Source: Patescibacteria group bacterium
GTDB taxonomy: Bacteria > Patescibacteriota > Patescibacteriia > UBA10025 > JAHIVO01
DNA length: 64,000 bases
Assembly (NCBI GenBank): GCA_041650915.1
Contig: JBAZKE010000005.1
Location: 11,310-75,309 of the forward strand
Direction of reading: 5' to 3'
Part shown: piece after piece, positions 16,705-36,266 of the stretch
Position numbering within the stretch: position 1 is the first letter of the stretch
Layout: every line of letters starts with the position of its first letter
Position numbers and translations under genes: made by a program
Notes under the pieces: model-generated
The model's database searches: none
What the model saw: only the letters and a program-made list of their open reading frames with translations
What the model was told of the DNA's origin: nothing

Positions 16705-17367
16705 TTATAGTAATTCAAATGTGCTGACAAACGCATCGTACAATTCTTCGCGTTCTGAAGTGAATACAGGTGCGAATTGACTCCCTGTTGCAATCTGGTA
16801 GTAATATGTTTCTCCAAGCAGAATAGAATTTGCACCAATCTTCCTTGTACCACTTTCCAACTGAGCAGTGGCATTATATCTCCATGCGTCTTTGTTGTTA
16901 ACAGAGATAGTTAAATATTCGTTTTTATCGTTAACAGAAAGAGGCACTCCACTATTTACTAACTCATTTAAAGTATTTGCACCCGCATTGTTGCTTGCTA
17001 ATATCCGAATGACCAGGTCACCTATCGAAAAATTAACAATATACCCCAAATCCTCGTCATCATTGATCCCACTAGTCAACTCTTGATAAGTCGCATCACT
17101 TGGATACTTCACAGAATACCCATACTCCTCGTTCTCATACGTCAGCCAGTCTGAGGTATCAATGTCTGAGGTAAGGGCGTTGACATTAGTATTTTCATTG
17201 TCATTAGTGGCTGTGTTGACATTGGTGGCATTCATATTCTGATTAGCAGCAACAGTATTGGCGTTATTGGTATTATCACCCTCATTATCCTGAAAAAACA
17301 GGAAATACCCGCCAGCCAGGATAATGGCGGCGATGAGGATACTGACGAGAATGGTTGGTTTTGACAT
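16705..17367 (-). CDS. membrane-anchored N/T-rich protein, paralog family member B
   Basis: 220 aa. MSKPTILVSILIAAIILAGGYFLFFQDNEGDNTNN... DTSDWLTYENEEYGYSVKYPSD. The first 30 aa are almost identical to 15113..15820. Confidence 0.6.
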   Translation of the reverse strand: MSKPTILVSILIAAIILAGGYFLFFQDNEGDNTNNANTVAANQNMNATNVNTATNDNENTNVNALTSDIDTSDWLTYENEEYGYSVKYPSDATYQELTSGINDDEDLGYIVNFSIGDLVIRILASNNAGANTLNELVNSGVPLSVNDKNEYLTISVNNKDAWRYNATAQLESGTRKIGANSILLGETYYYQIATGSQFAPVFTSEREELYDAFVSTFELL

Positions 17368-17626: not shown

Positions 17627-20506
17627 TTAACTCCTTTTTTCCTTTTCAGCGGTTGTGCTCTCCCCGCTGTGCAGCGGAATCAGAACGTTGAACGTTGATC
17701 CCTTTCCAATGCCATCGGACTCAACCCAAATATTGCCTCCGTGCGCTTCGGCGAGCCGCCGCGCAACGTACAGCCCGAGGCCGGACCCGTCGGGGTTGAC
17801 CTGCGCGATGCCGTACCCGCGCACGAACTTCGTGAACAGCTTCTTCGCCTCTTCCGGCTCTATGCCGCGGCCGGTATCCTTAACCGCAAAATGCATATAC
17901 TCGCCGTGCGGTTCGGCGATGAGCGTAACGGACCCCTCGTCAGTGTACTTGATCGCGTTGTCGGTGAAGTTGAGCACGATATCGCCGAGCTTGTCCTTAT
18001 CCGCAAACACAAGCGGAAGCTTTTTCTTCGGTTTGTGAAAAATCAGCTTGAGCTTTTTCTCGTCCGCCGCCTGCTGCACCATCGACATGACCTTGTCGAC
18101 AACCTCCTCAATGTGGACTGGCGTACGGTTGAGTTCGAGCCGCCCTGACTCGATCTTGGACACATTGAGGAACAGGTTGATGATGCGGATCATGCGCTGC
18201 GACTCCTCGAGCAATCCCACGAGTATCTTGTGCTGCTCTTTCGGCACCTTGCCGAAATCACCCTGCAGGATCATTGACAAATAGCCCATAATGCCCGTCA
18301 TCGGCGTCCGGAGCTGGTGTGACGTGATCGATACGAACTCGGATTTAGCCTGGTCGAGCTGCTGCAAATGCTTGTTCGCCTCGCCGAGGTCTTTATTTGA
18401 CCGTTCGAGCTGGCGGTACAGCTCGATGTTCCGCGATACGATGCCGGACTGGTTGGCAAGCGCTTTCATGATAGAGATGTCGGTCGGCTTGATCTGGCCG
18501 GGCTCGTGGGCGAGCAGATAGACAATAGCGCCAACGATTCCCTCTTCCGAATAGATCGGGACGGAAATCACCGTCCGCACCTTGAGCAGCTTCTGCATTT
18601 TCTGTACGATTTCCTCCGGAACGGCTGGCGAGAGAAAGTCGGTAAACTCCGTGCCGATCTGCACCTGGCCTCCCTTAACGGTTTTCACCGTCCTGCTCTT
18701 GCTCGTCGTGTAGTCGCCCCAATACTCGCTCATCGGCTTTGGCAGCAGCCCGAGGGCTTGCTTGATTGGCTGGCTTTGCGTCACCGCATCGGCAAATAGC
18801 CGATGCCGGTCTTTCCCGAGGAAGAGCACGATGCCGCCAATGTACCCGAGCTCGGTCGCGATGCTGTCCGCTATCGTCTGTGTCACTTTATGGAAATCGA
18901 GCGTGCGGGTGATGAGGTTCGTGACGTTCTGCAGCGCTGACAGGAACTTATTCCGCTCCTGGAGCTGCAGATTGGTATTGCGCAGGTCTTCCGTGGAGAT
19001 CGCAACCTCTTTTTTAAGCCGCTCGGTGAACTGCTGGGCTTCTTCATATAACCGCGACTTCTCGAGCGCGGAAGCGAGCTGCGGCCCGATCAGCTTAAGC
19101 AAGTTCAAATCTTCGGAGCCGTACGGATCGCCGGACAGCTTTTGCCCGAGCACCATAATGGCGGTGAGTTCGCTTCCCGTCGTGATCGGCGCGACGATCG
19201 TGGCATCGAGGCCATCGAGCTCTTTTTTCGACTCTTCGAGGCCTTTCCGATCCGCTTCATGCTGCGTATCTTCGATCTTCCGCTCGAGCCCCTCAAGCAC
19301 GACTACCTCCTGCGATGCGCGCATGTACTTCACGAGCGCGCTGTTGTGGCTGATGCGCTGTTTATAATCATGCTGGTCACGTTCCGCGAGTTCAGCCAAA
19401 ATTGCATCGTCAATCTTTTCACCAGTTCCCGGATCGATCCTTCCCCTGCGTTTATAAAAAGCTCCACCCGATGCTCCGGTCAGATAAATGCTCGTATTCT
19501 TTACCTTGAGGTCTTTTTCCAGTTTTCTTGAAAGTGAAAATAAGAGTATATCCAAATCAATTTCGCGATTGATGATTTCGGAAAGATCAGTTAAGAGTTT
19601 TTGGTAGTCAACACGTGCTTTAAAGAAAAGGGTGTCAGTCGCCGCGCCTATCCATTTTTTTAAAGGATCTAATATTAAGACAATAAAAATTGAAACGACC
19701 AGTGCAATTAATAATCTTAGAGGAGTGTTCAATACTGCTTGAGGCAAACTGATTGTCATAACTACCACTGTCGTGGCAATAATAAATACTAGAACAGAAT
19801 AGGTAATAGTGCGTAGCACTACAAAACGAATATCTAATAATCGATGCCTAACAATAGCATAAGACATGAAACCAATCATAAAAACAGAAAAGGATGGACC
19901 GATATTACCAAACTCCACGCTAAAAAATCGAGGCAATATTAAATTTACACTAAAAGCAGAAATGATAAAGAGTATTATTCCCAGAAAAGTATACTTCAAT
20001 TGCAATTTACTCACACCAGATGACTTTCGAAATTTCTTGACAAATAAATACAAGATATATATTACATAGATTGCAGCATATAAAATATAATAATTAACCC
20101 CTGGTCCAAATACATCTCTTGGATCCAAACCTTTAATTACAGCGACACTCGAATCAAGTTTAATTAGAAACGGACTTGTGAAAATCGTGCCTAAAAAAAA
20201 GATTCCTCCCAGAATCAAAATATAAAAGAATACTTTATTTTCTTGCCTATCTCGCCTAGGAAAATTCTTTAAAAAAATTAAAAAAACAATCAAGGCAATA
20301 GTACTAAAAAGGTAAGAAAACTTTACCCAAAGAACATGTTCACCTGATAATCTGGTGATTAGTACCGAACAATTCCACGTGGCAATAAATAACGTTGTCA
20401 ATGCAAACAAACGATTGATAACTGCCCGTTTCCGAGAATAAACAAGGTAGCCAAAAAAAATACTCAATAACGTGGTCAACCCTAAAATGATATTTTCTGG
20501 ATTCAT
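17627..20506 (-). CDS. sensor histidine kinase: N-terminal multi-TM sensor domain, GAF domains, HisKA, HATPase_c
   Basis: 959 aa. About 8 TM helices. H-box SHQLRTPMTGIMGY. G-boxes DTGRGIEPE...GSGLGL. Starts 3 bp after the upstream methyltransferase stop. Confidence 0.85.
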   Translation of the reverse strand: MNPENIILGLTTLLSIFFGYLVYSRKRAVINRLFALTTLFIATWNCSVLITRLSGEHVLWVKFSYLFSTIALIVFLIFLKNFPRRDRQENKVFFYILILGGIFFLGTIFTSPFLIKLDSSVAVIKGLDPRDVFGPGVNYYILYAAIYVIYILYLFVKKFRKSSGVSKLQLKYTFLGIILFIISAFSVNLILPRFFSVEFGNIGPSFSVFMIGFMSYAIVRHRLLDIRFVVLRTITYSVLVFIIATTVVVMTISLPQAVLNTPLRLLIALVVSIFIVLILDPLKKWIGAATDTLFFKARVDYQKLLTDLSEIINREIDLDILLFSLSRKLEKDLKVKNTSIYLTGASGGAFYKRRGRIDPGTGEKIDDAILAELAERDQHDYKQRISHNSALVKYMRASQEVVVLEGLERKIEDTQHEADRKGLEESKKELDGLDATIVAPITTGSELTAIMVLGQKLSGDPYGSEDLNLLKLIGPQLASALEKSRLYEEAQQFTERLKKEVAISTEDLRNTNLQLQERNKFLSALQNVTNLITRTLDFHKVTQTIADSIATELGYIGGIVLFLGKDRHRLFADAVTQSQPIKQALGLLPKPMSEYWGDYTTSKSRTVKTVKGGQVQIGTEFTDFLSPAVPEEIVQKMQKLLKVRTVISVPIYSEEGIVGAIVYLLAHEPGQIKPTDISIMKALANQSGIVSRNIELYRQLERSNKDLGEANKHLQQLDQAKSEFVSITSHQLRTPMTGIMGYLSMILQGDFGKVPKEQHKILVGLLEESQRMIRIINLFLNVSKIESGRLELNRTPVHIEEVVDKVMSMVQQAADEKKLKLIFHKPKKKLPLVFADKDKLGDIVLNFTDNAIKYTDEGSVTLIAEPHGEYMHFAVKDTGRGIEPEEAKKLFTKFVRGYGIAQVNPDGSGLGLYVARRLAEAHGGNIWVESDGIGKGSTFNVLIPLHSGESTTAEKEKRS

Positions 20507-20508
20507 AT

Positions 20509-21219
20509 TTACTCAGCTCTTGCTATAATCAGCTCAAACTGGTCTGAATAGGTGAGGCGGCAATCAATTATATGGAAATTGGTTTTTTCTAAAAGGCACC
20601 TAATATCATTTTGAAAAAAATATCTTAATCGTAAAGAAAAATACCGTCGCTTAATGTTGACGAGAAAGGAAGAAATAATACGAGGATTTCTAATCATCTT
20701 GTTGAGTAACCCGTGCCGTAAATCACTAAAAAATATTTTCAATCTATTCGATCCCTTTCTTGGATAAGTTAAAATAAGTAGTCCCTCTTTTCTTTTCAAT
20801 ATCCGATTAAATTCTCTTAATAACATTTCCGGCGATTGAACATCCCAAATAACGCTCAAGCATACCACGATACTAAAATAATTCTTTTTGAATGGTGTTG
20901 ATGAATCTAAATCGATATTTTGTAAGTGGACCCGCCTACCAAAAAATTTTTTCTCCAAATAACTAATAATCTCAGCTTGGTTATCAATGCCCCAAACTTC
21001 AACATAAGGGAACAAACTTTTAAATCGATCTAGGAAATTTCCAGTCCCAGTGCCCGCGTCAAGTAATCTACTTGCTCTTCTCTTTAAAATGTCACCTCTA
21101 AACTCTCCAATAATCTCGATAATGTCCGACATCATTCGATTATACGAAGGGCTGTTTTGGACAATTAAATCATAGTCGTCTAAATAGCTCGACCAAAAAT
21201 CTTTTTTTTCACTCTTCAC
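20509..21219 (-). CDS. SAM-dependent methyltransferase (class I)
   Basis: 236 aa. The LDAGTGTGNFL glycine-rich motif I. Overlaps the upstream ligase gene by 11 bp. Confidence 0.7.
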   Translation of the reverse strand: MKSEKKDFWSSYLDDYDLIVQNSPSYNRMMSDIIEIIGEFRGDILKRRASRLLDAGTGTGNFLDRFKSLFPYVEVWGIDNQAEIISYLEKKFFGRRVHLQNIDLDSSTPFKKNYFSIVVCLSVIWDVQSPEMLLREFNRILKRKEGLLILTYPRKGSNRLKIFFSDLRHGLLNKMIRNPRIISSFLVNIKRRYFSLRLRYFFQNDIRCLLEKTNFHIIDCRLTYSDQFELIIARAE

Positions 21220-22705
21220 GATTATTTACATACTTATTTTTAATCCCTGAGGACATATTCCCACGAATAAAATCTATAATAATCGGGGTATAATTTATGT
21301 GAGTTACTGCATCTGCAAACTCCCGATTATTTTCCTGGATCTCCTTAGTAATTATTTTTCTAAAATCTTCACGCAAAGATTCCGATCCCTTAATATCCTT
21401 TTTTAATTCTATCAAAATTGAAATTATGGGTTCTTGGTTTTGATTCTCCTTTTTTTCAACAATAAATCTTCCTGTATGATGACGCGCGATGTGTTTGTTG
21501 CTCAAGGCTCCTTTAATATTTTCAATGTATACATTTGCCCCCCTAAAAGTCACCCCTCCGTCACTTCGACCAGCAATCAACAAAAACGGAAACTTCATCA
21601 TCAATTGCAAAGAACCCTCGTAGGTTCCGATAATTTTCTCAATATCGATATCAAACCTCAATAACTCCGTCTTCATTCGCTGAAAAGTTATTACGTCGCC
21701 TAAATCATGGATGTTGTATCTCACCAATGGCGATATCGACCTAGTACTTGCGATGACTTCGTTATTTACAGCCTCAGCAAAAAAATTAATCGGATTATAC
21801 TGAAATAGCATTGGTGTCATATTCGAAAATCTAGAGAAAACCTCGTTTGCCACGGAGTGGTCAGCAAAACAAGCTCTACGAATCTTTATCGAAAGTGGTG
21901 TTTCAAAACCAGTACCTCGACCAAATTCCGTAACGCCATAACTCGATTGAATTCTTTGAATAATATCCCTCTCGTCACTAATTTCTAATAATTGGGCGAG
22001 ATAATCACGAAGTCCCTCAGGAAAGCCTTCTCCTCCGGTATTAATGTATACTTTTATTTTTTTATGAAACCCCAAACGATTCACCTTTTCAATTAAATTT
22101 TTTATAAAGGGGGGGTAACCAGTAATAATAACCTGATCGTAATAAGAAGAGAAAACCTCGAGAATACTAATCACTGTATTTATATCAGGGCCTGGGTTTA
22201 CACTCAAAAGAGAATATCTTTTCTTATACCCAATCTCTTTAATTAAGCGAGACACTTTCTCACCGCTCGGCCAGATACCGAATGCATAGCAATTAATAAA
22301 AAGTGTAGAACGCCTATCTACGTTACCAATAGTACGTAATAAAAACTCAAATTGTTTTCTAGTTTGATAATCTTCCTCCGGAGATCTTAAAAAAAATGTT
22401 GTTGCGCCAGAATAGCCAGAACTTCCTTCTAAAGAATGTGCCCGTTTTATAGCACTCTTAATAGATCTATCGAAAATATTAAACCTACTCAGGTAACTTG
22501 TCTTATCAATAATGGGCAATGCTCGAAATTCCTGGAAGGAATTAATTTTCTTAACCGACGCTCCTTTCTCTTTCAAAAAAATACAATAAGCCGAAACTTC
22601 ATTTATTGTATCATTATAAAGCTTAATAGCATTCTTTATACTATCTCGATGCATATTCCTTATTTTTCTCCTTGCAATAGGAAATAGTAAAGCCTGAAAA
22701 TCCAT
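21209..22705 (-). CDS. adenylate-forming enzyme of the PaaK/coenzyme F390 synthetase-like family
   Basis: 498 aa. GSSGYSGATTFF (P-loop-like), SSYGVTEFG (YGxTE), IAGRSDGGVTFRGANVY (cf. PaaK GRxDDMIIxRGVNVFP). Confidence 0.65.
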   Translation of the reverse strand: MDFQALLFPIARRKIRNMHRDSIKNAIKLYNDTINEVSAYCIFLKEKGASVKKINSFQEFRALPIIDKTSYLSRFNIFDRSIKSAIKRAHSLEGSSGYSGATTFFLRSPEEDYQTRKQFEFLLRTIGNVDRRSTLFINCYAFGIWPSGEKVSRLIKEIGYKKRYSLLSVNPGPDINTVISILEVFSSYYDQVIITGYPPFIKNLIEKVNRLGFHKKIKVYINTGGEGFPEGLRDYLAQLLEISDERDIIQRIQSSYGVTEFGRGTGFETPLSIKIRRACFADHSVANEVFSRFSNMTPMLFQYNPINFFAEAVNNEVIASTRSISPLVRYNIHDLGDVITFQRMKTELLRFDIDIEKIIGTYEGSLQLMMKFPFLLIAGRSDGGVTFRGANVYIENIKGALSNKHIARHHTGRFIVEKKENQNQEPIISILIELKKDIKGSESLREDFRKIITKEIQENNREFADAVTHINYTPIIIDFIRGNMSSGIKNKYVNNREE

Positions 22706-22711
22706 ATTAAG

Positions 22712-23410
22712 TCATAATATTGTTATATTCTTGTGATCATGTCGTAAAAAATGATAAAAAAAGGGATTCAATGTTTTTAACTTTTCATTACTATCGGTAA
22801 TATCATTAATCAAAGTGACAGAAAGACTCTTATCATCGACTCCGTAATATTTGTATGGAAAACTTATAGCACGAAAGCCAAACTGCTTATATCGCTCTCC
22901 ATGCTCTACAGAACATGTAATAACAAAATGAGTAATCCCGTTGTTAATTGCATATATAATTGCTGACTTTATTAAACCCAACGAAACAATTTTATTTCGA
23001 AAATCCTTTTTCACAACAAAACGTGATAACTCTGCATACCTCGCATTATTAGGCATATATTGCTTCACCGTATAATGCTCTTCTGTCAGAACTTGCTTTT
23101 GGTGATTTGGTATGATCCGAATTCCTCCAATTACTTGACTGTGTTGATTTGTGACTACAATTGACGTTGCATACACATCGTATTGGTCTGTCTCCATCTC
23201 GGAAGGATAATCTTCCTTCGGTAAAAATCCCTTCTCTAGACAATAAACTTGATACCTTAATCGGAATAAATATTTTTGCTCATCTTCTTTTGCGATGTGA
23301 AAAGAATACTGTCTCATCCTATAATTAACCACTGGCAGTGAGAATATTAATAGAATTTTCCTTTCAAACCATTTTTGCACATTCATATCACAATTTATAT
23401 CATACCACAA
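22712..23410 (-). CDS. LuxI/FeeM-like N-acyltransferase (autoinducer synthase / N-acyl amino acid synthase fold, GNAT-related)
   Basis: Contains the ...ARYAELSRFVV... motif characteristic of this family, and the N-terminal LFRLRYQVYCLEKGF pattern. The true start is more likely ATG 23317 (MRQYSFHIAKEDEQ..., about 201 aa) than the track's 23410. Confidence 0.5.
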   Translation of the reverse strand: MWYDINCDMNVQKWFERKILLIFSLPVVNYRMRQYSFHIAKEDEQKYLFRLRYQVYCLEKGFLPKEDYPSEMETDQYDVYATSIVVTNQHSQVIGGIRIIPNHQKQVLTEEHYTVKQYMPNNARYAELSRFVVKKDFRNKIVSLGLIKSAIIYAINNGITHFVITCSVEHGERYKQFGFRAISFPYKYYGVDDKSLSVTLINDITDSNEKLKTLNPFFYHFLRHDHKNITIL

Positions 23411-23682
23411 ATTCCTACTTTTTTCAAGTCAGAAAAAACGACAAAACATCAAATACCCTAGTATTTATATGCTCCTCGACTGTGCGAGTTATATTCATAT
23501 GATTTTTCTTTGTATTTTCTGGCGCCTTAATTATAACAAAAACTCACCCTTAAGAAAAGAGGTCTTATTAAAACATCCTTTTTACTTCCTTATCCTCTCA
23601 ACAGCCGGCAAGGCTAAACTCTAATCTTTAAATCCTAAACCCTAAACAATATCAAAATTCAAAATACTAATGTTCTAAACAG

Positions 23683-24042
23683 TTATTTTGATTTTTCCAG
23701 AATTGCCCCAAAAATCTTCATGAGCTCGGTTGATTCCTGGATGAGCTTTTTTCTACTTTCAAATTCTCTCTGGTCAGGTTCAGTAAGTTCTAACCAATAT
23801 CTCCTCTCCTTTGCTTCCTTGCGGCAGATTTTAACGCGCATTATAAAATCCTTCTTGCTTAACGCTTCGTTTGCTTCGATGTAGTTTGCACCGACAGAAC
23901 CTGCTGAACGAACTAACTGTTTTCCAAACTCATAGTGGCTCACGCTCTTTGGTAAGGTTTTGCAGTATCGAGATACACTTCTGGTATAGTTAAGCGTTCT
24001 ATCCTCCAAATCAAACCGTTTTGAATTTTGAATTTCCGTCAT
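23683..24042 (-). CDS. four-helix-bundle protein (23S rRNA intervening-sequence protein family)
   Basis: 119 aa. LVRSAGSVGANYIEANEA.SKKDF..K..IC.KEAKE...WL matches the family signature. Paralog of 26170..26547. Confidence 0.75.
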   Translation of the reverse strand: MTEIQNSKRFDLEDRTLNYTRSVSRYCKTLPKSVSHYEFGKQLVRSAGSVGANYIEANEALSKKDFIMRVKICRKEAKERRYWLELTEPDQREFESRKKLIQESTELMKIFGAILEKSK

Positions 24043-24080
24043 TTGAACTTGTTTAGTATTTCGAAATTAGGATTTAGTAT

Positions 24081-25520
24081 TTAGTGCCTCGTACCAATTC
24101 GTTCCACCGCTTGTTTATACAGCAACGCATTCGCTATTGCATTCGTCATTTGGAACTGAAGTCTGGATAAATACTCCACGTTGTCGGAGGTATATGCCTC
24201 GTTCTTTTTTTTGCGTCCGAACGTGAAAGCGCCGATGAGCTCCCCCTTTTCTCCGATCGGCAACACCATGCTGACCCCCAGCTTTTGTAACGTCGCCTCC
24301 GCATCGAGGAGGAGCTGCTTCTCGCCATTTTCCTCCTCATCAGCCCGGTACGGAATCTCTTCCGTTATCAATACTCCCAGGTGCTCGCGTAAATACTGGA
24401 ATACGGAATCGGTAGGCTCCAGCTCGATGCGCTTATCCTCTTTGTAGTAATTTTCTAGTTTGCCATTCCGTTTATTGAGCCAGATAAATTGAATGTCCTG
24501 CACTTCCAGGAAATCAGCTAACAAAAGTATTACCTTTTTAATCAGCTGGTCAAACTGGACCGAAGACGAGAGTACGATCCGCAGCTTATGCGCCTCTTCC
24601 TGGGCTGATTTTTTCCGTGCGTAGAACACCCTATCAATCATTGTCACTAAAACTCTCCGCAGTGGTTCAACGCTGGTTACAATTATCAATACCAGAATAA
24701 TCGTAGCAGTCTGTTCTTGCCAAGCGTACTGTTCGATCAGTAATCGCTGGAATATTATAAGAAGGTAAATGTATAAAAAAAGTATTATCAATAATGCAAT
24801 AAAATGTACAAACCCTTTGCGGAAAGCGAGTTTGATATCAAGCAAACGGTAACGAAGAATTGCATATGACATCCCAGCCGTCATAAAAATTGTACATAGA
24901 GGTCCGAACAATGATGGCCGTACATCCAGAGAACTAATAAAAAGAGGCCAAATTAAATTTGTGAACACTCCCCCAATAGCACTGATGGCAAAACCAGCAA
25001 TAACATACCTCAATTTTAGCTTTTCAATGGGAAGCGCACTTTTGTACGTTTGAAAAAAATAATAAAATCCGATAAAAAAATAGAGCAGGATATACATGCA
25101 ATAAAATGGGTACCAGGAACCGTAAACGGAACCATTTAAGCCGCCTATAGCATTTTGAACGGACTCTTTAAATACTAGACTTGTTAAACTAAGGCAGCAA
25201 AAAAATATTGGCAGTACTGACAATATAAAATTCTTTTTTATAGGAACTTTTTTCTCCTTTGGAAAATGTAAAACAAAATAAATAAATAAGGGTACAATCA
25301 ACGAAGCAGATACAAATGCTGCTCTACCAGTTATTAATGCCAATTGGCAATCGCTACTAATATTTGAATAATAGCTGCTTCCCACCCAAGCACTCACAAC
25401 AAACGATAAAAAGAAAAAATAAATATTGACCTTCCGCCTCACTCCTTTTAGCAGAACAAACAATCCGAGCGAGATATTCGCCACAACCACAAAAATTGTG
25501 ATAATGCCAAGTAACGTCAT
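24081..25520 (-). CDS. membrane sensor module (multi-TM + GAF) without kinase output; paralog of the histidine-kinase N-terminal half
   Basis: 479 aa. About 8 TM helices ending in ILRYRLLDIKLAFRKG (cf. IVRHRLLDIRFVVLRT in the kinase), then a GAF-like domain. No H-box or ATPase. Confidence 0.65.
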   Translation of the reverse strand: MTLLGIITIFVVVANISLGLFVLLKGVRRKVNIYFFFLSFVVSAWVGSSYYSNISSDCQLALITGRAAFVSASLIVPLFIYFVLHFPKEKKVPIKKNFILSVLPIFFCCLSLTSLVFKESVQNAIGGLNGSVYGSWYPFYCMYILLYFFIGFYYFFQTYKSALPIEKLKLRYVIAGFAISAIGGVFTNLIWPLFISSLDVRPSLFGPLCTIFMTAGMSYAILRYRLLDIKLAFRKGFVHFIALLIILFLYIYLLIIFQRLLIEQYAWQEQTATIILVLIIVTSVEPLRRVLVTMIDRVFYARKKSAQEEAHKLRIVLSSSVQFDQLIKKVILLLADFLEVQDIQFIWLNKRNGKLENYYKEDKRIELEPTDSVFQYLREHLGVLITEEIPYRADEEENGEKQLLLDAEATLQKLGVSMVLPIGEKGELIGAFTFGRKKKNEAYTSDNVEYLSRLQFQMTNAIANALLYKQAVERIGTRH

Positions 25521-26113
25521 TGCTTTCTCCCTTTAAACCCCTCATCCTTACTAATTATCTCTTCCAAAAAATCCCGCAGGAAATCCGCCTTTGTTTTTTT
25601 AACCTTTTTCGACTTCCACTCCAGGTACCGTTCCATGGTCGGCGTGATGCGGAGCGTAAACTTGACCGTCGGCTTTTCCTCGACTCCCCTGCCGGCGCCC
25701 GCCTCACTGAGAAAATCTACCACCTTCTGGTCGAGGTCTTTATTCGTGTACGGCGTCAGCCGGACAAACTCCGGCGCACTCTTCCGGGTCAAGTACCCGT
25801 ATGCGATCTTCTCCGGAGCGCCCTTCTGGTACAGGTACAGGAGCGGCTTTTTCTGCGAGATGGCGTACGCGAGCAAATATCCGATCTCCTGGTCGGGCCT
25901 CGATGCTTCGATGATGATGCAGTCCATCTTGTCGAGCAGGATCTCCCCCGACTCGTTCATCCGCTCGAGGTCTTCCTTCTTGAAATCGGAGTTGTTCTCA
26001 TCGGACGATGCGATGACGAACACGCCGGCAGCGCGCAGCGTCTCGACGATCCGCTTGTAATTCCGGTCGAGTTCGGCCGTAGATATTAATGGTGAGAAAA
26101 AGTATATCCGCAT
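25517..26113 (-). CDS. hypothetical protein, co-operonic with the upstream sensor module (4 bp overlap)
   Basis: A 198-aa ORF. The N-terminal half has an alpha/beta pattern and the C-terminus a short basic helix (KFTLRITPTMERYLEW). No family assignable. Confidence 0.45.
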   Translation of the reverse strand: MRIYFFSPLISTAELDRNYKRIVETLRAAGVFVIASSDENNSDFKKEDLERMNESGEILLDKMDCIIIEASRPDQEIGYLLAYAISQKKPLLYLYQKGAPEKIAYGYLTRKSAPEFVRLTPYTNKDLDQKVVDFLSEAGAGRGVEEKPTVKFTLRITPTMERYLEWKSKKVKKTKADFLRDFLEEIISKDEGFKGRKQ

Positions 26114-26169
26114 GAAAATTTCTAATGAATGAATATCTAATTTCTAGTCAATGAGTACTGTATCAATTA

Positions 26170-26547
26170 CTAATTAACGACTCCTCGATTCGTTGAATGC
26201 ACTATTGCATTGAAAATTAAATTCAGTTCCTTTGCTTCTTGCAGTAGTGGCTGTACTTTTTCTTCTTGAACAGAATCAGCTGCTACAACCATTCGTAACC
26301 AATGTTTTGTTTCACGCGCCTCTTTCTTACAGATTCCGATTTTGTGCTTAAAATCCTTCCTCGATTCAGCATCGTCTGCCTCGCAGTAATTTGCGCCAAC
26401 GCTTGTCGCTGACCGTACGAGTTGAGTAATGAGAGGCCGGGTTACGGAACTCTCCGGGATCTGCCGTGCGAATCCAATAACGGCTCGGCCGAACTTCGCA
26501 GTACGTTCTTCTAAATCAAACTTCTTTGTCATTCCGTCATTGGTCAT
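26170..26547 (-). CDS. four-helix-bundle protein (23S rRNA IVS protein family), paralog
   Basis: 125 aa. LVRSATSVGANYCEADDAESRKDF.HKIGICKKEARETKHWL. Confidence 0.75.
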   Translation of the reverse strand: MTNDGMTKKFDLEERTAKFGRAVIGFARQIPESSVTRPLITQLVRSATSVGANYCEADDAESRKDFKHKIGICKKEARETKHWLRMVVAADSVQEEKVQPLLQEAKELNLIFNAIVHSTNRGVVN

Positions 26548-26586
26548 TGCTGCTTGATTAGATATTAGAAATTACTAATTACTCAT

Positions 26587-27582
26587 TTACAACCCATTAC
26601 TCCACATCATCATGCGGATCTTGCCTACATCCCGCGTCTGCCCCAAAACCCACATGAAGCGGACAAACGCGGTTTCAAACGTCATGTCGTTGACGAGGAT
26701 ATACTCGCGCTTTTTCTTTTTTACGTCCAGGGCAAAGGGGTTGTGCGCGAGAATCGGCACCTTTTTCTTGTACGCACGATCGAGTACCGGCTTGTAGCTC
26801 TCCGGAAACAAATTCGTATTGAAGCTCTTGATAACGATGCCTTTGCACCCCTTTCGCATCATGCTATCCAAGAGCTCCGGCCCTGCGCCCGGGTACAGCT
26901 GCAGCAAACATACCGTATCCTCGACCGAATCAAACAGCTTGGGTTTTTGCTTCGAGCGCTTTTTGGCTGCCTCGTATACCTTGATGCCAAAATCAACCTT
27001 GCCGAGCAATCCGTCCCGATACGCGTCAAAAATGTTGAACGAAGGCGAATCGCTCTTGACCGCCTTGGTCGCCTTGAGGAGGCGGTTGCCGAACATGATC
27101 GCCGCCTCGGCGATGTCCATGGTCGCGACCTGTATCGCGTTGATGAGGTTCGCCTTCACGCCGAGCGTCTTGTAGTTGTGTATGAGGCCGGAGAGGTCCT
27201 GCTTTCCGCTGTCGGTCACCTCGACTGACAGCGGCGATCCGGTGAAGATGACCGGCTTCGGAAGGGGCTGCAGCATGTGGGCTATCATTGCGGATGAGTA
27301 GAGCATCGTATCAATTCCGTGGATAATGACAAAGCCGTCGTACCTCGGCATCCGGTCGAATATTTCGCGGGCGAGCTTTGACCAGAGCTTCGGTTCGATC
27401 TCGGACGCGTCCCCGCCGAAAACGAACACCGGCTCGACATCGGCGATAAGGTTGATTTCCGGCACAGCGGCAATCCACGCCTTCATGTCAGGCGCTTTTT
27501 GAACGGAAATCACCTTCTCCCCTGCAACGAGTGCAGATCCTCCGCAGAACAGCAATGCAATTTTTGACTTTTTTGATGACAT
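26587..27582 (-). CDS. L-asparaginase family protein (type I-like)
   Basis: 331 aa. IALLFCGGS..., and VIIHGIDTMLYSS corresponds to the asparaginase hGTDTM motif. Confidence 0.75.
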   Translation of the reverse strand: MSSKKSKIALLFCGGSALVAGEKVISVQKAPDMKAWIAAVPEINLIADVEPVFVFGGDASEIEPKLWSKLAREIFDRMPRYDGFVIIHGIDTMLYSSAMIAHMLQPLPKPVIFTGSPLSVEVTDSGKQDLSGLIHNYKTLGVKANLINAIQVATMDIAEAAIMFGNRLLKATKAVKSDSPSFNIFDAYRDGLLGKVDFGIKVYEAAKKRSKQKPKLFDSVEDTVCLLQLYPGAGPELLDSMMRKGCKGIVIKSFNTNLFPESYKPVLDRAYKKKVPILAHNPFALDVKKKKREYILVNDMTFETAFVRFMWVLGQTRDVGKIRMMMWSNGL

Positions 27583-27744
27583 TTCTGTTGGTCATTCTGG
27601 GTCCCGCTTTTCGGGACGAAGAATCTTTATGGCGTAATTGAATGACTTTCTTAAATTATTTCACGGTAGGTTTCGAAACTCCCAGCTTACTCCTTCAGAT
27701 GGCTCCTTCCCTGCCTATGGGCAGGCCCACGCGATGTCGGAAAA

Positions 27745-28010
27745 AAGCATGCCATGGCGAGGAGGAATCCCCTTCTCCCCTCCGCCACTCTGAGCCCACC
27801 GAAGCGCCATCGCGGAAGGCAGGAAAAGAATCCCCTGGCCGGAGGCTTCGAGATCGCCACGTCGCCTTCGGCTCCTTGCGATGACCCAGGGAAAAAGCAT
27901 GTCGTTGCGAGAAAGAATCCCCTTCTCCCCTCTGTCACTCTGACGACGGCGTAAGCCGGAGAAAGAGTCCCCTGGCCGGAGGCCAGGAGATACTTCGCTT
28001 TCGCTCAGTA
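27745..28010. repeat. array of degenerate ~150-bp palindromic repeat units immediately 3' of GIY-YIG gene 1
   Basis: The unit ccctggccggaggcttcgagatcgccacgtcgccttcggctccttgcgatgacccagggaaaaagcatgtc (27831..27902) recurs at 28990..29060 and partially at 29200..29262. The sub-motifs gaatccccttctcccctc.g.cactctga and gtc(a/g)t(t/g)gcgag also recur. Confidence 0.6.
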
Positions 28011-28313
28011 TGACTCGGGGAATAAGTCTTTGCTCAAGTCACGCCACGTGGGATTCAATCCTTTAATGAGCATCACCTTCTTCTTCCGTAACCATCCTTT
28101 GATCTGTTTTTCTCTCGCGATGGCTATTCGTATGTCATCTATTACCTCATAGTAGACAAGCTTGTTTGCATTGTACTTCGCCGTAAAACATTTGTTTACC
28201 TTATCACGGTGCTCATGAACTCGGCGTTGCAAATTATTCGTTACACCAGTATAAAGAACCCTGTTGAATTTATTCGTCATGATATACACGCAGTACTGCC
28301 GTTCCCGTCGCAT
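28005..28313 (-). CDS. GIY-YIG nuclease family protein (UPF0213-like), copy 1
   Basis: Internal start at ATG 28313 (MRRERQYCVYIMTNKFNRVLYTGVTNNLQRRVHEH), the GIY-YIG motif pair, about 103 aa. The track ORF, extended to 28382, would overlap the neighbouring gene. Confidence 0.8.
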   Translation of the reverse strand: MRRERQYCVYIMTNKFNRVLYTGVTNNLQRRVHEHRDKVNKCFTAKYNANKLVYYEVIDDIRIAIAREKQIKGWLRKKKVMLIKGLNPTWRDLSKDLFPESY

Positions 28314-28320
28314 AGGATTT

Positions 28321-28953
28321 TTATACGGCATCAAGGTTCTTCGCCCGCCGCGTCCGCCCAGAACGGCAAACGTAGGCCACAATTACTGCAATAATAACGG
28401 TACTGAATGCCCCGATGGTATTGAGAAGCATATCATTGCCCGTATCTGGCCCGTCGCCAAAACGGTTGCCACCAGTAATCAAATCCTCAATGTACTCTTC
28501 CAGTTCATAAAAAACTCCGAGCGTGGACGCGATCGTGAATGCAAACAAGCCCACAAGCCATGGCGACAGCGCGATCTTTCCGCTTTTTTTCAGGAGCCAC
28601 AGCGCGTTGAATGACAGGAGCGCTGCCATTGCCGTGCCGCACAAATGCCCTGCCTGGTCATACCAGTCAAATTTGTTGTACCAGTGCATCGTATCCCCGA
28701 GAGCGTCAAATGATACGCTGAAAAGCGCTCCGGCGAATACGAACCACGGCAGCGGATTGCCAGTAGACTTTTTCACCCGGTATGAAACAAACTCAACCGC
28801 AAGCCACACGAAAAACGCCGTAACGAACAGCCCGAGCCAGGTGAAGTCGAGCGTGAAATCCAGCACCCCAGCGTAGTTAAGCAATTCAAACGATATCCAG
28901 CCCGCAAATCCGAGCCGCATGGCATTGGTGAGCACTTTGTTTGTCTTTTCCAT
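28321..28953 (-). CDS. hypothetical integral membrane protein (about 6 TM)
   Basis: 210-aa hydrophobic ORF. Its last ~15 codons overlie the conserved leader of the GIY-YIG module. Confidence 0.55.
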   Translation of the reverse strand: MEKTNKVLTNAMRLGFAGWISFELLNYAGVLDFTLDFTWLGLFVTAFFVWLAVEFVSYRVKKSTGNPLPWFVFAGALFSVSFDALGDTMHWYNKFDWYDQAGHLCGTAMAALLSFNALWLLKKSGKIALSPWLVGLFAFTIASTLGVFYELEEYIEDLITGGNRFGDGPDTGNDMLLNTIGAFSTVIIAVIVAYVCRSGRTRRAKNLDAV

Positions 28954-28974
28954 AGTCGATATGTAATTCTATTT

Positions 28975-29290
28975 ATTTGTCACTCTGACCCTGGCCGGAG
29001 GCTTCGAGATCGCCACGTCGCCTTCGGCTCCTTGCGATGACCCAGGGAAAAAGCATGTCATGGCGAGCGAAGCGAATGGTCCCCTGCTCCCTCTGTTACT
29101 CTGAATGAAGAGAAGAATCCCATGACCGATGGTCTGATGATCACCACGTCCCTCCTCCTTCTGTCACTCTGACGACGGTGCAAGCCGGAGGAAGAATCCC
29201 CTGGCCGGAGGCTTCGAGATCGCCACGCCCTTCACTCCGTTCGGGCTCGCAATGACAAAGAAAAACGCAGGTCATTGCGAGGAGGGACGA
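28975..29290. repeat. second array of the same palindromic repeat family, 3' of GIY-YIG gene 2, including an 11-bp perfect hairpin ctcgcaatgac/gtcattgcgag
   Basis: 28990..29060 is almost identical to 27831..27902. 29247..29280 forms a hairpin, ctcgcaatgac-N14-gtcattgcgag. Confidence 0.6.
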
Positions 29291-29300
29291 CGAAGCAATC

Positions 29301-29600
29301 TCATTGGTACCAATCTACCGCTAGGTCCTTCCACTGTTTATTATCCTTTTCAATTAGCTGAACTTTCTTACGTCTCGAGCCTGCTTTCAGTTGCTTCTCC
29401 CGTGCGATTGCGTCCATCGGATTATCAAACACTTCGTAATAAACTAACTTATTAATATTATACTTGCTCGTAAAACCTTTGACTGCTTTTATTTTGTGTT
29501 GGTACACGCGGCCTTCTAAATGACCCGTGACCCCTATATACAAAACCGTATTCGTCTTATTCGTCATAATGTACACGCAGTACTGCCTTTCCTGACGCAT
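29301..29600 (-). CDS. GIY-YIG nuclease family protein (UPF0213-like), copy 2
   Basis: 99 aa. MRQERQYCVYIMTNKTNTVLYIGVTGHLEGRVYQHK. The upstream leader (29612..29660) resembles the leader of copy 1. Confidence 0.8.
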   Translation of the reverse strand: MRQERQYCVYIMTNKTNTVLYIGVTGHLEGRVYQHKIKAVKGFTSKYNINKLVYYEVFDNPMDAIAREKQLKAGSRRKKVQLIEKDNKQWKDLAVDWYQ

Positions 29601-29665
29601 AGGATGTATTCATACTGCATGAGGGTTCTTCGCCCGCGGCACTCGCTCAGAACGGAAAACGTTTT

Positions 29666-31135
29666 TTACCCCACCTTCTCCCCCAGCATTTGCAGCCGTA
29701 TCCGCTCTATCGCGTCGCGGTACTGCAGGGCGCTCGCCAGCGTGTACGTTACCTGGTCCCGCAGCTGCTTAAGGTACTCGACGTCTTGTACCGTATACGC
29801 CTGCTGCTTCTCCCGCTCTCCGAGCGCGATGAGCCCGATGACCTCATCTTCCGTTTTGAATCCCATGATGAGCGACAGCTTCCGTTTTTTCATCTCTTTT
29901 TCCAGCCGCCCGAGCTGCTGCGCATGCCGTTCATCGACTTCACTGATTATGTGGGGAATCTCGTCGCGGACGAGCGGCCGCCAGTGCGAGGAATAATAGT
30001 GGACGAACCCATTGCCCAAATCGAGCGACTCGTGTATGTATTCGTCAGGATGGTACGTAAGCTTGCCCTCCTTGCGATCCAGCAAAAAAAACTTAAGCTC
30101 CTGTATGCTCAAGTATTGTTTAATGTTATTCACAATCACCTCAACGAGCTCATCAATGCCGGTCTTTTTTGCAATCCGCTCCTTCAGCTCTTTTACCGCA
30201 AGATCAATGCTCTTGCGGTCTTTGAAAATGGAGTTGATAAGCCGTTCGATAAACTTCTTGAGCGGCGGAAAACCGAGCGCGACGAGTACTATGAGGATTA
30301 CCGCTGTCCAGGTTGGTGAAACATTCCACGACTCTTCAATATTTGTTTTCAGCAACAGCGCAAGGTATGTATATACCGCTAATGCAATAAAAAGTGAAAC
30401 TCCGTAAACAATACTTTTTCGGACAACGATATGAATATCCATAAAGCGATAACGAAGCATCGCATACGCACTCATAAATGCGAACAAGAACGTTACACTT
30501 ACTAAAGGTGCGTAAATTAATGGCGACAATCTGCTGTGCAAGGCATTGAAAGCACTTGCAAAAAGTGCGCAACTGATAGAGATACTATATCCAATTAGTA
30601 TATACGTAATCTGCATCCTAGTAATCGAATTTGAGTTTTTATATTTTTTGAATAAAATCAAGAGAGGAAACACTAAAAAGTAAACGACTAAAATAATAAA
30701 ATAGATAATATAGAACGTAAGGTCATACTTGGCGACGTTATACTCAACCATCATCATAACCTTGCCAATCAGTACTAGCCAGATGGCGATTAGGATTGGA
30801 ATGAATAATAGAACTGCATAGAATAACTTAATCTTTTTCGACCTAGCCGGAAAATGAAGGCAAAAAAGCGTGAACCAATACGGAATTAGTGGTGCAACAG
30901 CAAAATCAATTTTACTTAGTATGATATGTATGTGAAAAGGAATGGATGCAATCATTTCTAAAAGGGTGAGAAGAACCCAGGAAAATCCAAATAATAACGT
31001 AATAAAAAAAAGAATATAGGTACTATTCTTTTTCCAATTCAAAAGCACAAAGATGAATAGTATAACATAAGCAAGTACGTTAATTGTGGTTACTACTATT
31101 GCTACTTTGTAATCCATATCCTTGCGCCGTCTCAA
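29666..31135 (-). CDS. membrane sensor module (multi-TM + GAF) without output domain; third paralog
   Basis: 489 aa. The TM block ends with AMLRYRFMDIHIVVRKS, followed by a GAF-like region. No kinase motifs. Confidence 0.65.
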   Translation of the reverse strand: MRRRKDMDYKVAIVVTTINVLAYVILFIFVLLNWKKNSTYILFFITLLFGFSWVLLTLLEMIASIPFHIHIILSKIDFAVAPLIPYWFTLFCLHFPARSKKIKLFYAVLLFIPILIAIWLVLIGKVMMMVEYNVAKYDLTFYIIYFIILVVYFLVFPLLILFKKYKNSNSITRMQITYILIGYSISISCALFASAFNALHSRLSPLIYAPLVSVTFLFAFMSAYAMLRYRFMDIHIVVRKSIVYGVSLFIALAVYTYLALLLKTNIEESWNVSPTWTAVILIVLVALGFPPLKKFIERLINSIFKDRKSIDLAVKELKERIAKKTGIDELVEVIVNNIKQYLSIQELKFFLLDRKEGKLTYHPDEYIHESLDLGNGFVHYYSSHWRPLVRDEIPHIISEVDERHAQQLGRLEKEMKKRKLSLIMGFKTEDEVIGLIALGEREKQQAYTVQDVEYLKQLRDQVTYTLASALQYRDAIERIRLQMLGEKVG

Positions 31136-31550
31136 TAATTAGCGCCGTCGCTCGTTTTTAGCGTACCACCGTCCCCTCCGGTGTCAATCCCGGCTTCTGG
31201 ATAAGCTGTGGATAGTCATTTACAAGCTTGTTCAACCGTAGTAAACTGAGCGTATCAAGAAATACAAAAATCAATATTGTTTCCTCCATGGGCTTTCAGT
31301 CCGTTTGCAGAATGCCTTAACGCCGCATTGAGTCGCCTCAGGCGCGTGACGTGCTGGTACTCCTTCCTCCTTTGTAGCGTGGATGCCGCGACAATCCCCC
31401 CGGGTTTGGCAGTTGCCTGGGGGGAGAATATTTTCTGCCTTTGGCATGGTGCGGACGCTTCACATGGAGTGCGCTCATACATACGGATGCGCATGCAGTC
31501 CCTCCCCGAGGTCATGGCAACCGCCCGGATTGCCAGCCTCATTCCTCGCC

Positions 31551-31583
31551 GGGGTAGCGTTTCTCGCTGCCCCGTGCTTTTTT
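31551..31583 (+). terminator. intrinsic terminator (ggggtagcg-tttct-cgctgcccc + T7) with no plus-strand CDS upstream
   Basis: A 9-bp GC-rich stem followed by gtgcTTTTTTT. It lies in a 745-bp divergent intergenic region, so it implies a noncoding plus-strand transcript. Confidence 0.45.
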
Positions 31584-31880
31584 TATGCACATTGACGAAA
31601 AATATGGATTTTGTACAATACATCCAGAACGACCATCGGCCCACGATGGTTGTTCTTTTGTTTTCCTCAAGTAAACGATGCATAGAAATGGTATAATTAC
31701 CGTGTAAACAGCACTTCACACGCAAAAAAAGCGACGGCGCACGTATGAGCGCGCGGTCTCGGTTCGCGTGTGTTTACCCGCGTATAGCTGCTCGTTCTGA
31801 ACGTTCTTTACTGCGCCGTCGCACCCTTGCGCCGTCGCAAAAAGAGGTGGATAACTTGATTACTGATAAAAAATAATACT

Positions 31881-32609
31881 ATGCAAGACCAGCCAAACGA
31901 GCCAAAGGAAATGTCAAAAACAACCGCCTGGATTATCCTCGGCGCTATCGTTGTAGTACTCGCAGCGGGAGGATACTACTTCCTGGCGCAGGAAAATGGG
32001 AATACAAACAGTTCAAATGCCGTCACGGTTACGAATACAATGGCGAATGAGAACGTAAATGGATCGATGAATGCAAATACTGAGTTGAATACGAATACAA
32101 CTTCCAATACCAACGAGGTTACGAATACAAATACCGAAGTTGATACCTCAGATTGGCTGACCTACACCAACAGCGAGTATGGCTATACCATGCAGTATCC
32201 CAGTGATTGGACGGTGGAAGAGGTTAAGCTGTCCGAAGATCCAGATAGCCGAGGTAGGATACCACCGTTAAGAGCTGTTAAATTTCGTAACGAGAATAAA
32301 AGGTTCTTATTAGTAATGTATTTGAAACCAATTACTGAACTCGGAACTCCATATATGAGCGCATCTCCTGCATGGGATCAAAGTGAATTCAAAATACAGG
32401 TTGGCCAGTACACCATATCGGCAATTAAAGAAACAAGCGAAGGAAGAATTCAAACTATTTATATCCCTGGACCATCGCAATTGGTACAGCTGGGTAGTTA
32501 CGATTTTGCAGCCTATCTCATTGACTACTCCGATAATGACGCAAGGGATTTATCAAAGAACAATGAGTACTATGTAATACTCGAAATCCTCAAAACCCTC
32601 AACATATAA
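31881..32609 (+). CDS. membrane-anchored N/T-rich protein, paralog family member C
   Basis: 242 aa. A TM helix (WIILGAIVVVLAAGGYYFLAQENGNTN), an N/T-rich linker, then DTSDWLTYTNSEYGYTMQYPSDWTVEEVKL. Confidence 0.6.
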   Translation: MQDQPNEPKEMSKTTAWIILGAIVVVLAAGGYYFLAQENGNTNSSNAVTVTNTMANENVNGSMNANTELNTNTTSNTNEVTNTNTEVDTSDWLTYTNSEYGYTMQYPSDWTVEEVKLSEDPDSRGRIPPLRAVKFRNENKRFLLVMYLKPITELGTPYMSASPAWDQSEFKIQVGQYTISAIKETSEGRIQTIYIPGPSQLVQLGSYDFAAYLIDYSDNDARDLSKNNEYYVILEILKTLNI

Positions 32610-35603: not shown

Positions 35604-36266
35604 TTATTCCACAAACCCAAATCCATCCAGTATTTTAGAGAATTCGGCAGAATATTTTTCTTTGTCATCGAGCTCGCCGACAGAGGCTGAAATCGTGTAT
35701 TCAAAATCATTGTGCCGCACGTATGCGGTAATCGTGTACCCAAGCGAATTTGCCGTCACCTGCACCGCTGGCTCGCTACCGACGACAACCTCCCGCTGCT
35801 CGAGCAGCTCGTCGGCTCCGTACCAATCCGTTTCCTCGGCAACCCACTCCCCGAGCAAGCCATATTCCGCTTCATAAGCGTACACCTCGACCTTCATGCC
35901 CTGTATGGGATCGGCATCAGGCTGCCGCAGCGCGACCGCGTCAATGAATGAGACGTACCCGAACTCATCCGGGCCGTCGATCGCCCAGCCCTCGGGTAGG
36001 GTCAGCGAGTACCCGTCGTCGTACGAGGTAAAGACAGTTTCGCCCTGTGCGGTCTCCCCGATATCGTAACCCCTGCCGGCGGGTGCTGCGGTTGTATTCT
36101 CCGCTGGCACATTCGAAGTATTCAAGAAGCCGTCCTCAAAACCGTACGTCCACCACAACGCCGCACCGATGACGATAACGACGCCGAAAATGATCCGAAA
36201 TATCAGTTTGTCCTGCCGAATGCTTACCTTCATACATTTACTATAACACATATCTGCATCCGGCAC
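35604..36266 (-). CDS. hypothetical membrane-anchored protein, distant member (D) of the anchor paralog family
   Basis: 220 aa. A TM helix (IFRIIFGVVIVIGAALWW), then a globular region with DDGYSLTLPEGW (cf. EYGY..YPS.W). Convergent with the CHAP gene. Confidence 0.5.
   Translation of the reverse strand: MPDADMCYSKCMKVSIRQDKLIFRIIFGVVIVIGAALWWTYGFEDGFLNTSNVPAENTTAAPAGRGYDIGETAQGETVFTSYDDGYSLTLPEGWAIDGPDEFGYVSFIDAVALRQPDADPIQGMKVEVYAYEAEYGLLGEWVAEETDWYGADELLEQREVVVGSEPAVQVTANSLGYTITAYVRHNDFEYTISASVGELDDKEKYSAEFSKILDGFGFVE

Follow-up and report, generated by a model that had tools for sequence, protein, structure and literature searches.

The analysed stretch of 64,000 nucleotides (hereafter the window), from a Patescibacteria group bacterium, encodes three paralogous membrane proteins on its minus strand. 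Two of them, here called A (24081..25520, 479 aa) and B (29666..31135), consist of transmembrane (TM) helices followed by a GAF domain and are kinase-less. The third, K (17627..20506, 959 aa), is a full-length paralogue with the domain order 7TM + 2TM, GAF1, GAF2, HisKA and HATPase_c. Counted from the TTG codon at 31135, B has 489 aa. Its start is probably the ATG at 31117, giving 483 aa, and this exact 483-aa product is present in public records. The sensor architecture of A and B is a known one, present here in a conserved variant without a kinase.

Domain architecture of A, B and K

Reading along the minus strand, A begins with the 7TM bundle (24855-25520), followed by an RYRLLDI junction (24834-24854), TM8-9 (24645-24812), a helical linker (24507-24644) and the GAF domain (24084-24506). 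In B, the junction reads RYRFMDI (30434-30454) and the GAF domain lies at 29669-30109, while the junction of K reads RHRLLDI (19829-19849). The initial annotation had already recognized this motif as common to the three proteins, and R(Y/H)RxxDI indeed belongs to the HisKA_7TM model. It had also given them a shared multi-TM architecture, correctly, but with eight TM helices. The AlphaFold helices and the positive-inside loop charges indicate nine (7 + 2), with the N-terminus outside and the C-terminus and GAF domain inside.

Paralogy between A, B and the N-terminal half of K was confirmed by full-length tblastn alignments against the window, covering K residues 1-490. A and B were 28% identical over 477 aa (E 1e-47), A and K 23% over 503 aa (E 1e-26, K residues 5-490), and B and K 22% (E 2e-17). 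On the K side, the alignment always ended around residue 490, which is the end of GAF1. As annotated before, A and B stop after their GAF region.

All three proteins exceeded the Pfam gathering score of HisKA_7TM (PF16927, 28.6 bits), with 52.3 bits for A, 37.4 for B and 53.8 for K. The match spans residues 9-229 of A and 21-234 of B. A Pfam scan of the three proteins found HisKA and HATPase_c in K and in neither A nor B. A and B are therefore members of the HisKA_7TM domain family that carry a GAF domain and lack both hallmarks of a histidine kinase, the HisKA/DHp domain with its phospho-accepting histidine and the HATPase_c domain. In K, the H-box (SHQLRTP) is found at residue 729, and the N, G1 and G2 boxes are intact.

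Taken singly, the sequences of A (19.5 bits) and B (20.6 bits) scored below the GAF_2 gathering threshold of 28.6. The GAF assignment is based on the match of the A/B family profile to the GAF structure 3o5y in the PDB (E 2.5e-5, residues 315-467) and on fold matches of the AlphaFold model of A. This model covers the whole open reading frame (ORF) with a mean pLDDT of 81, and its GAF domain, which closes with a long C-terminal helix, resembles 1ykd, 3k2n, 6oap, 4mcw and 3ci6 (Foldseek, E 1e-4 to 1e-3). A similarity of the 7TM part to class C G-protein-coupled receptors (CaSR, GPR156) was dismissed as that of a generic seven-helix bundle (TM-score about 0.35).

The gene calls from JGI, ENA and Logan give the full 479, 483 and 959 aa for A, B and K. 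The NCBI annotation (WC505_065xx) uses internal starts, yielding 186 aa for A (MFA5135404.1), 258 aa for B (MFA5135411.1) and 710 aa for K (MFA5135399.1). These shortened starts strip the 7TM domains, so that the membrane domains of all three proteins are hidden in the public annotation.

Conservation of the family and loss of the transmitter

The transmitter of K (residues 681-959) and its second GAF domain were used as tblastn queries, and no frame of the window gave any other match at E ≤ 10. The next gene begins 38 bp after A and 65 bp after B, and both of these next genes have families of their own (a four-helix-bundle IVS protein and a GIY-YIG protein, respectively). We collected 22 orthologues of A (31-49% identity) and 28 of B (35-50% identity), all from metagenome-assembled genomes of Patescibacteria. 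The A orthologues measure 440-489 aa, save for one partial sequence of 407 aa, and the B orthologues 446-494 aa, save for three shorter partial ones. Their C-terminus is constant: in about 50 sequences, the protein ends 3-13 residues beyond a conserved helix (...ALLYKQAVERI).

These data bear on whether A and B could be truncated pseudogenes, or full-length kinase genes broken by an assembly error or a frameshift. Split or fragmented copies do occur on other contigs: at locus L010, for example, a copy lies in three fragments, and at L080 a B-type gene is interrupted at the junction. However, the search of all six frames for HisKA/HATPase remnants came back empty, the downstream gaps are short, dozens of same-length orthologues at 32-50% identity share the same C-terminus, and the AlphaFold model is confident over the whole ORF. 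The remnant search and the constant length of the orthologues effectively refute decay or artefact, to which we assign a negligible probability, and they bear out the initial observation of sensor modules without an output domain.

When 1.84 billion cluster representatives were searched with a profile, 3003 proteins matched at E ≤ 1e-30. The best 150 of these, together with the hits of two word-indexed searches, were classified into 130 kinase-less 7TM+GAF proteins and about 60 kinases. Kinases and kinase-less proteins were split with 97/100 bootstrap support in a neighbour-joining tree of 48 sequences from the loci (Poisson distances). In a wider tree of 180 sequences, six of the 171 classified ones fell on the wrong side. 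Up to three kinase-less copies are found in relatives, and the two to three paralogues of a genome are divergent, every one with a separate set of orthologues.

A and B are thus intact and belong to a conserved Patescibacterial family without a catalytic output of its own. This family descends from the 7TM-GAF-GAF-HisKA-HATPase lineage of K, and has lost everything after GAF1 in an old event. Because the orthologues have a constant length, no remnant is left and the tree separates kinases from kinase-less proteins, the loss was essentially single and preceded diversification into A-type, B-type and further paralogues. The initial idea of kinase genes that lost their transmitter half therefore describes the evolutionary origin of A and B, but not a decay, since the loss is ancient and the product has been maintained.

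The domains change at different rates. In A, B and K alike, the 7TM bundle evolves fastest (19-46% identity between orthologues), and the junction with TM8-9 reaches 44-69%. Among A orthologues, the GAF domain is 43-61% and the 7TM domain 19-39% identical, and this better preservation of the cytoplasmic half fits a conserved cytoplasmic partner. The cytoplasmic domains of K (49-81%) are above the GAF domains of both A and B (25-50% in the latter), and K orthologues as a whole are 50-56% identical. In the first seven helices of the A/B alignment, W45 and Y172 are the only conserved residues. Compared with one another, A, B and K have 22-27% identity in the 7TM domain.

Linkage to the kinase and a possible co-receptor role

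All genes from 31135 to ~11866 lie on the minus strand. Their order is B, GIY-YIG, DUF2238-like membrane protein, GIY-YIG, asparaginase, IVS protein, a 198-aa protein (S198), A, IVS protein, FeeM-like synthase, ANL-like protein, methyltransferase and K, and after K follow secreted PsbP-like/M23/CHAP proteins. Queries with CheY, PhoB and Spo0F found no receiver domain within the 64 kb, and a search with the transmitter of K found no second kinase transmitter there.

Kinase-less genes were recovered at 29 distinct loci, 21 of which could be evaluated for a downstream kinase. At 16-18 of these 21, the same strand encodes a full-length paralogous 7TM-GAF kinase at a distance of 1.1-7.9 kb downstream; in two of these cases, the ORF is cut off where the locus ends. 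Among metagenome loci picked by A-family motifs alone, a kinase was present in all nine that had enough downstream DNA. At L087, two kinase-less genes, a FeeM-like gene, an ANL-like gene and the kinase gene are contiguous, with spacers of 1-20 bp and no asparaginase/S198 pair nearby. The A/B family is encoded together with a kinase across deep divergence.

The 7TM domain also behaves as a module in relatives. At L030, L042, L043 and L046, tandem 7TM-only ORFs (220-232 aa) precede kinases of 735-753 aa. In other kinases, two, three or four HisKA_7TM(+1 TM) modules are fused in series before GAF-HisKA-HATPase, which indicates that several 7TM modules can act with one transmitter.

As side observations, the 7TM-only ORFs (220-235 aa, counting those of L090 as well) form tandem arrays of up to four beside HisKA_7TM kinases, and the break in some split B-type genes falls precisely on the junction motif (L080). 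Proteins that represent the 7TM-only or fused 7TM modules are P0162, P0195, P0234 and P0291.

We tentatively propose, at somewhat short of an even chance, that A and B are kinase-less accessory receptors acting through K. A co-receptor is the best-supported function for exactly two reasons, the conserved gene linkage and the fused multi-7TM kinases. A and B would sit in the membrane beside K, the only transmitter in the neighbourhood. There they would shift its kinase/phosphatase balance by lateral contacts of TM helices, of GAF helices, or of both. Several fast-evolving 7TM input modules would in this way feed a single kinase.

A number of observations weigh against such a role. The A-lineage gene is translationally coupled to S198 and not to K, and A and K look like separate transcription units in the window, where they are parted by an IVS-protein gene, a gap of 270 bp and, before the FeeM-like gene, a promoter-like site (23427-23399). 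At three of the 21 evaluable loci (L004, L029 and L051), there is no kinase within 8.5-10 kb. The fusions comprise 7TM(+TM8) modules and never a GAF-bearing one, and A and B are just 22-23% identical to K in every domain. The linkage itself could merely reflect tandem duplication and the strong synteny of these genomes. Finally, a 1:1 heterodimer of A or B with K through the GAF helices would leave the DHp domain of K unpaired, and it would therefore inhibit K instead of adding an input.

This last point leads to a quite unlikely alternative, in which A and B are decoys or dominant-negative partners that bind the signal of K or heterodimerise with it, thereby titrate the ligand or poison K dimers, and so set a threshold, with no new input. 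They do have the architecture of the N-terminal half of K, including the N- and C-terminal GAF helices of the dimer bundle, and a hemi-dimer would be formed without a second DHp domain. The conserved linkage to K also fits a decoy. However, the low mutual identity of the three 7TM domains makes a shared ligand unlikely, and the several divergent paralogues per genome, each with orthologues of its own, resemble input diversification and not titration.

The S198 and synthase genes, and comparison with known systems

S198 (25517..26113, minus strand, 198 aa) overlaps A by ATGA. It has a DNPH1/Rcl-like N-terminal domain of the nucleotide N-hydrolase type, as revealed by the match of its family profile to Rcl in the PDB (E 2e-6, with the catalytic Glu aligned) and by a Foldseek match to DNPH1 (E 1.5e-6). 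Its tail is probably ribbon-helix-helix-like, judging from a strand-helix-helix pattern predicted at a pLDDT of about 90; Pfam gave no ribbon-helix-helix family hit to this tail. The initial annotation had S198 following A as its co-operonic partner. On the minus strand, S198 lies upstream of A, and its primary partner is the type I asparaginase/GatD-like gene (26587..27582, minus strand; Pfam Asparaginase N- and C-terminal domains, TIGR00519 E 7e-46), because S198 directly follows this gene in 68/68 species-level loci of Patescibacteria, and the stop codon of the one often overlaps the start codon of the other. A kinase-less 7TM-GAF gene comes after S198 in part of the phylum only.

A different reading makes A, and perhaps B, autonomous sensors whose output is a protein contact with the co-translated S198 or with the asparaginase, possibly by sequestering at the membrane, and releasing, a transcription factor that controls the operon. 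We consider it unlikely. It draws on the overlap of S198 and A, on some 20 distinct loci in which no more than about 40 bp lie between S198 and the start of a kinase-less gene, on B-type genes that flank the other side of the same asparaginase/S198 pair, and on the GAF domain and C-terminal helix being the best-conserved parts of A. Yet in the 68 loci the pair mostly stands without a 7TM gene nearby. When loci were chosen without regard to S198, one of the five kinase-less genes with upstream sequence was S198-adjacent, and all kept the downstream kinase. At L001, S198 and the A orthologue are kept apart by an IVS-protein gene and a further paralogue, and the ribbon-helix-helix tail is a predicted one. 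S198 was consequently downgraded as a dedicated partner of A, given its constant pairing with the asparaginase gene and the motif-chosen metagenome loci that lack it.

The S198-type protein (about 197 aa) is 60-80% identical among loci, far above its neighbours. In distant Patescibacteria without 7TM genes, a GAF-HisKA-HATPase kinase adjoins the asparaginase/S198 pair (L006 3010-4665, L007 3186-4775), and at L007 a receiver gene is present as well. This hints at a wider link between the pair and GAF-containing signalling proteins.

K is the last gene of a low-GC block whose part upstream of K (20509-23410, 34% versus about 50%) starts with a FeeM/LuxI-like N-acyl amino acid synthase of the GNAT type (22712..23410, minus strand; PF21926 E 8e-21, Autoind_synth E 5e-9). 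Against TIGR03694, this synthase gave E 1e-22 and 81 bits, under the cutoff of 112 bits. It is followed by a putative PaaK/ANL-like adenylate-forming enzyme of 498 aa (21209..22705, minus strand), which has weak NCBIfam PaaK hits and a YGVTE motif, and by an S-adenosylmethionine-dependent methyltransferase (20509..21219, minus strand; Pfam Methyltransf_11 E 4e-13) that ends 2 nt before the start of K. A FeeM-like gene lies directly upstream of the K orthologue in at least eight loci (L011, L012, L013, L015, L018, L039, L062 and L087), and homologues of the ANL-like gene are found between FeeM and K at L087 and near a kinase at L042. This recurrent neighbourhood suggests that the FeeM-like gene and K form a synthase-receptor pair in Patescibacteria.

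More speculatively, the signal that enters the proposed receptor system may be an N-acyl amino acid that partitions into the membrane and is produced by the FeeM-like synthase. An extension of this idea, which we regard as rather doubtful, is a modular multi-subunit receptor. Stand-alone 7TM proteins and A/B-type paralogues would assemble around an orphan 7TM-GAF kinase and read N-acyl amino-acid lipids made by the FeeM, ANL and methyltransferase enzymes. If true, the multi-subunit receptor would be part of a self- or host-directed, quorum-sensing-like lipid circuit in ultra-small episymbiotic bacteria.

The same operon can also be taken as pointing away from signalling altogether. The 7TM domain of A and B might export, flip or bind the FeeM/ANL/methyltransferase lipid, or serve envelope structure, with the GAF domain as a regulatory cap. 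The adjacent lipid-synthase operon fits this, as does a 7TM domain that evolves fast in all three families and has almost no conserved polar residues. We nevertheless find it very unlikely, for the known role of HisKA_7TM is solely that of an input domain, in kinases, cyclases and phosphatases, and no similarity to transporters was found, the fold matching generic 7TM bundles (TM-score about 0.35).

Downstream of A lies a gene of the four-helix-bundle 23S rRNA IVS protein family (23683..24042, minus strand; TIGR02436 E 8e-21), enclosed by 16-nt inverted repeats (23655-23670 and 24053-24068). The initial annotation placed such a gene after B; there, a GIY-YIG gene follows instead (29301..29600, minus strand; PF01541 E 4e-16). 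A second four-helix-bundle gene (26170..26547, minus strand; PF05635 E 3e-17), with flanking 20-nt inverted repeats, separates the asparaginase gene from S198. Between B and the asparaginase gene, the minus strand further encodes a 210-aa membrane protein (28321..28953) and a second small GIY-YIG protein (28005-28382), the latter between the membrane protein and the asparaginase. The membrane protein is DUF2238-like in a relative: its homologues occupy the same position at L004, L013, L014, L080 and L088, and the L004 copy has PF09997.

The small IVS-protein and GIY-YIG genes fill intergenic gaps of an otherwise syntenic order, and their positions vary among relatives; at L001, for example, an IVS-protein gene sits between S198 and the next 7TM gene. 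They look like mobile or RNase III-processed inserts. An RNA gene search gave no Rfam or tRNA hits.

Beyond B, the region 31255-31880 has a sole ORF of 156 aa, without homologues in any fetched locus and without an Rfam or tRNA hit. Strong hairpin-plus-T-run sites occur on both of its strands (31550-31574, 31626-31656 and 31754-31737), and it is probably non-coding, a convergent/divergent boundary at which the B unit meets plus-strand genes. Four paralogous small secreted proteins (15113-15820, 16705-17367, 31881-32609 and 35604-36266) share an N-terminal TM or signal segment, a low-complexity linker rich in Asn and Thr, and a domain with weak PsbP_2 similarity. Their genes are interleaved with those of an M23 peptidase and of giant CHAP/LamG or CHAP/FG-GAP proteins (11866-15033, 32685-35495), which end in a Por_Secre_tail sorting domain. 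The window is a Kerfeldbacteria-like piece of chromosome, and its gene content also includes dcw genes, glycolysis genes and a NiFe hydrogenase.

Membrane partners that are not kinases or do not signal themselves, but are encoded near a kinase and tune it by direct contact, are known from LiaF-LiaS, SaeQ-SaeS, YycHI-WalK, UhpC-UhpB and RetS-GacS. Except for RetS, these partners are unlike their own kinase in sequence, whereas A and B are paralogues of the input half of K. In the quorum-sensing pairs LuxM-LuxN and CqsA-CqsS, the gene of an acyl-signal synthase lies beside that of a polytopic membrane kinase, by which a lipophilic signal is sensed in the membrane. The putative synthase here is of the FeeM/N-acyl amino acid type, and the kinase-less receptor paralogues have no counterpart in those pairs.

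The closest demonstrable homologues of A and B are the HisKA_7TM kinases, including K, which share the 7TM input, the junction, the two extra TM helices and the first GAF domain; A and B lack their second GAF, HisKA/DHp and HATPase_c domains. HisKA_7TM itself is listed only as a sensor domain, with no known ligand (PMC5847659, PMC6944256). Neither HisKA_7TM proteins without a kinase nor acyl signalling in Patescibacteria turned up in our literature searches.

PrsK (TIGR02916) of the PEP-CTERM/exosortase system has the same multi-TM, GAF and kinase layout, and its stimulus is also unknown (PMC1569441). TIGR02916 was the best specific NCBIfam match for A (20.3 bits) and B (14.9 bits), and TIGR03694, the PrsK-associated acyltransferase, was the best match of the adjacent FeeM-like gene. 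An identity of A and B with PrsK was rejected, as about 20 bits compare with a cutoff of 300, and neither PrsR nor a receiver domain was found in the window. No exosortase or PEP-CTERM proteins were found among the scanned window genes, and the secreted proteins carry Por_Secre_tail. Among annotated systems, the PrsK/TIGR03694 pairing is the nearest counterpart of K and the FeeM-like gene.

Archaeal "non-enzymatic HK-like" proteins combine sensor domains with HisKA and have no HATPase (PMC5847659). Like A and B, they are kinase-derived sensors without a catalytic output, but they retain a His-containing dimerisation domain, and A and B end before it. Plant ethylene receptors are paralogous TM-GAF receptors, and those that are kinase-less in function still signal in hetero-oligomers, perhaps through their GAF domains (PMC4479046). 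Their TM domains are not homologous to those of A and B. The kinase-inactive ethylene receptors also keep a degenerate kinase domain and signal via CTR1, whereas A and B have no such domain at all. Together with the accessory kinase partners and the quorum-sensing pairs, receptor families of this kind, with GAF-mediated hetero-oligomers, are the nearest functional analogy to A, B and K.

The finding would gain in interest if the link of A and B to the acyl-synthase/kinase operon is functional. Patescibacteria have very small genomes and few regulators. Nonetheless, this lineage keeps two to three kinase-less receptor copies beside one complete kinase, along with additional 7TM modules, stand-alone or fused, and a gene that may make an acyl signal. 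Should these copies indeed act through the kinase, one two-component transmitter would gain a broader range of inputs in a compact form, and the ligand of HisKA_7TM, a still uncharacterised domain, would become easier to approach.

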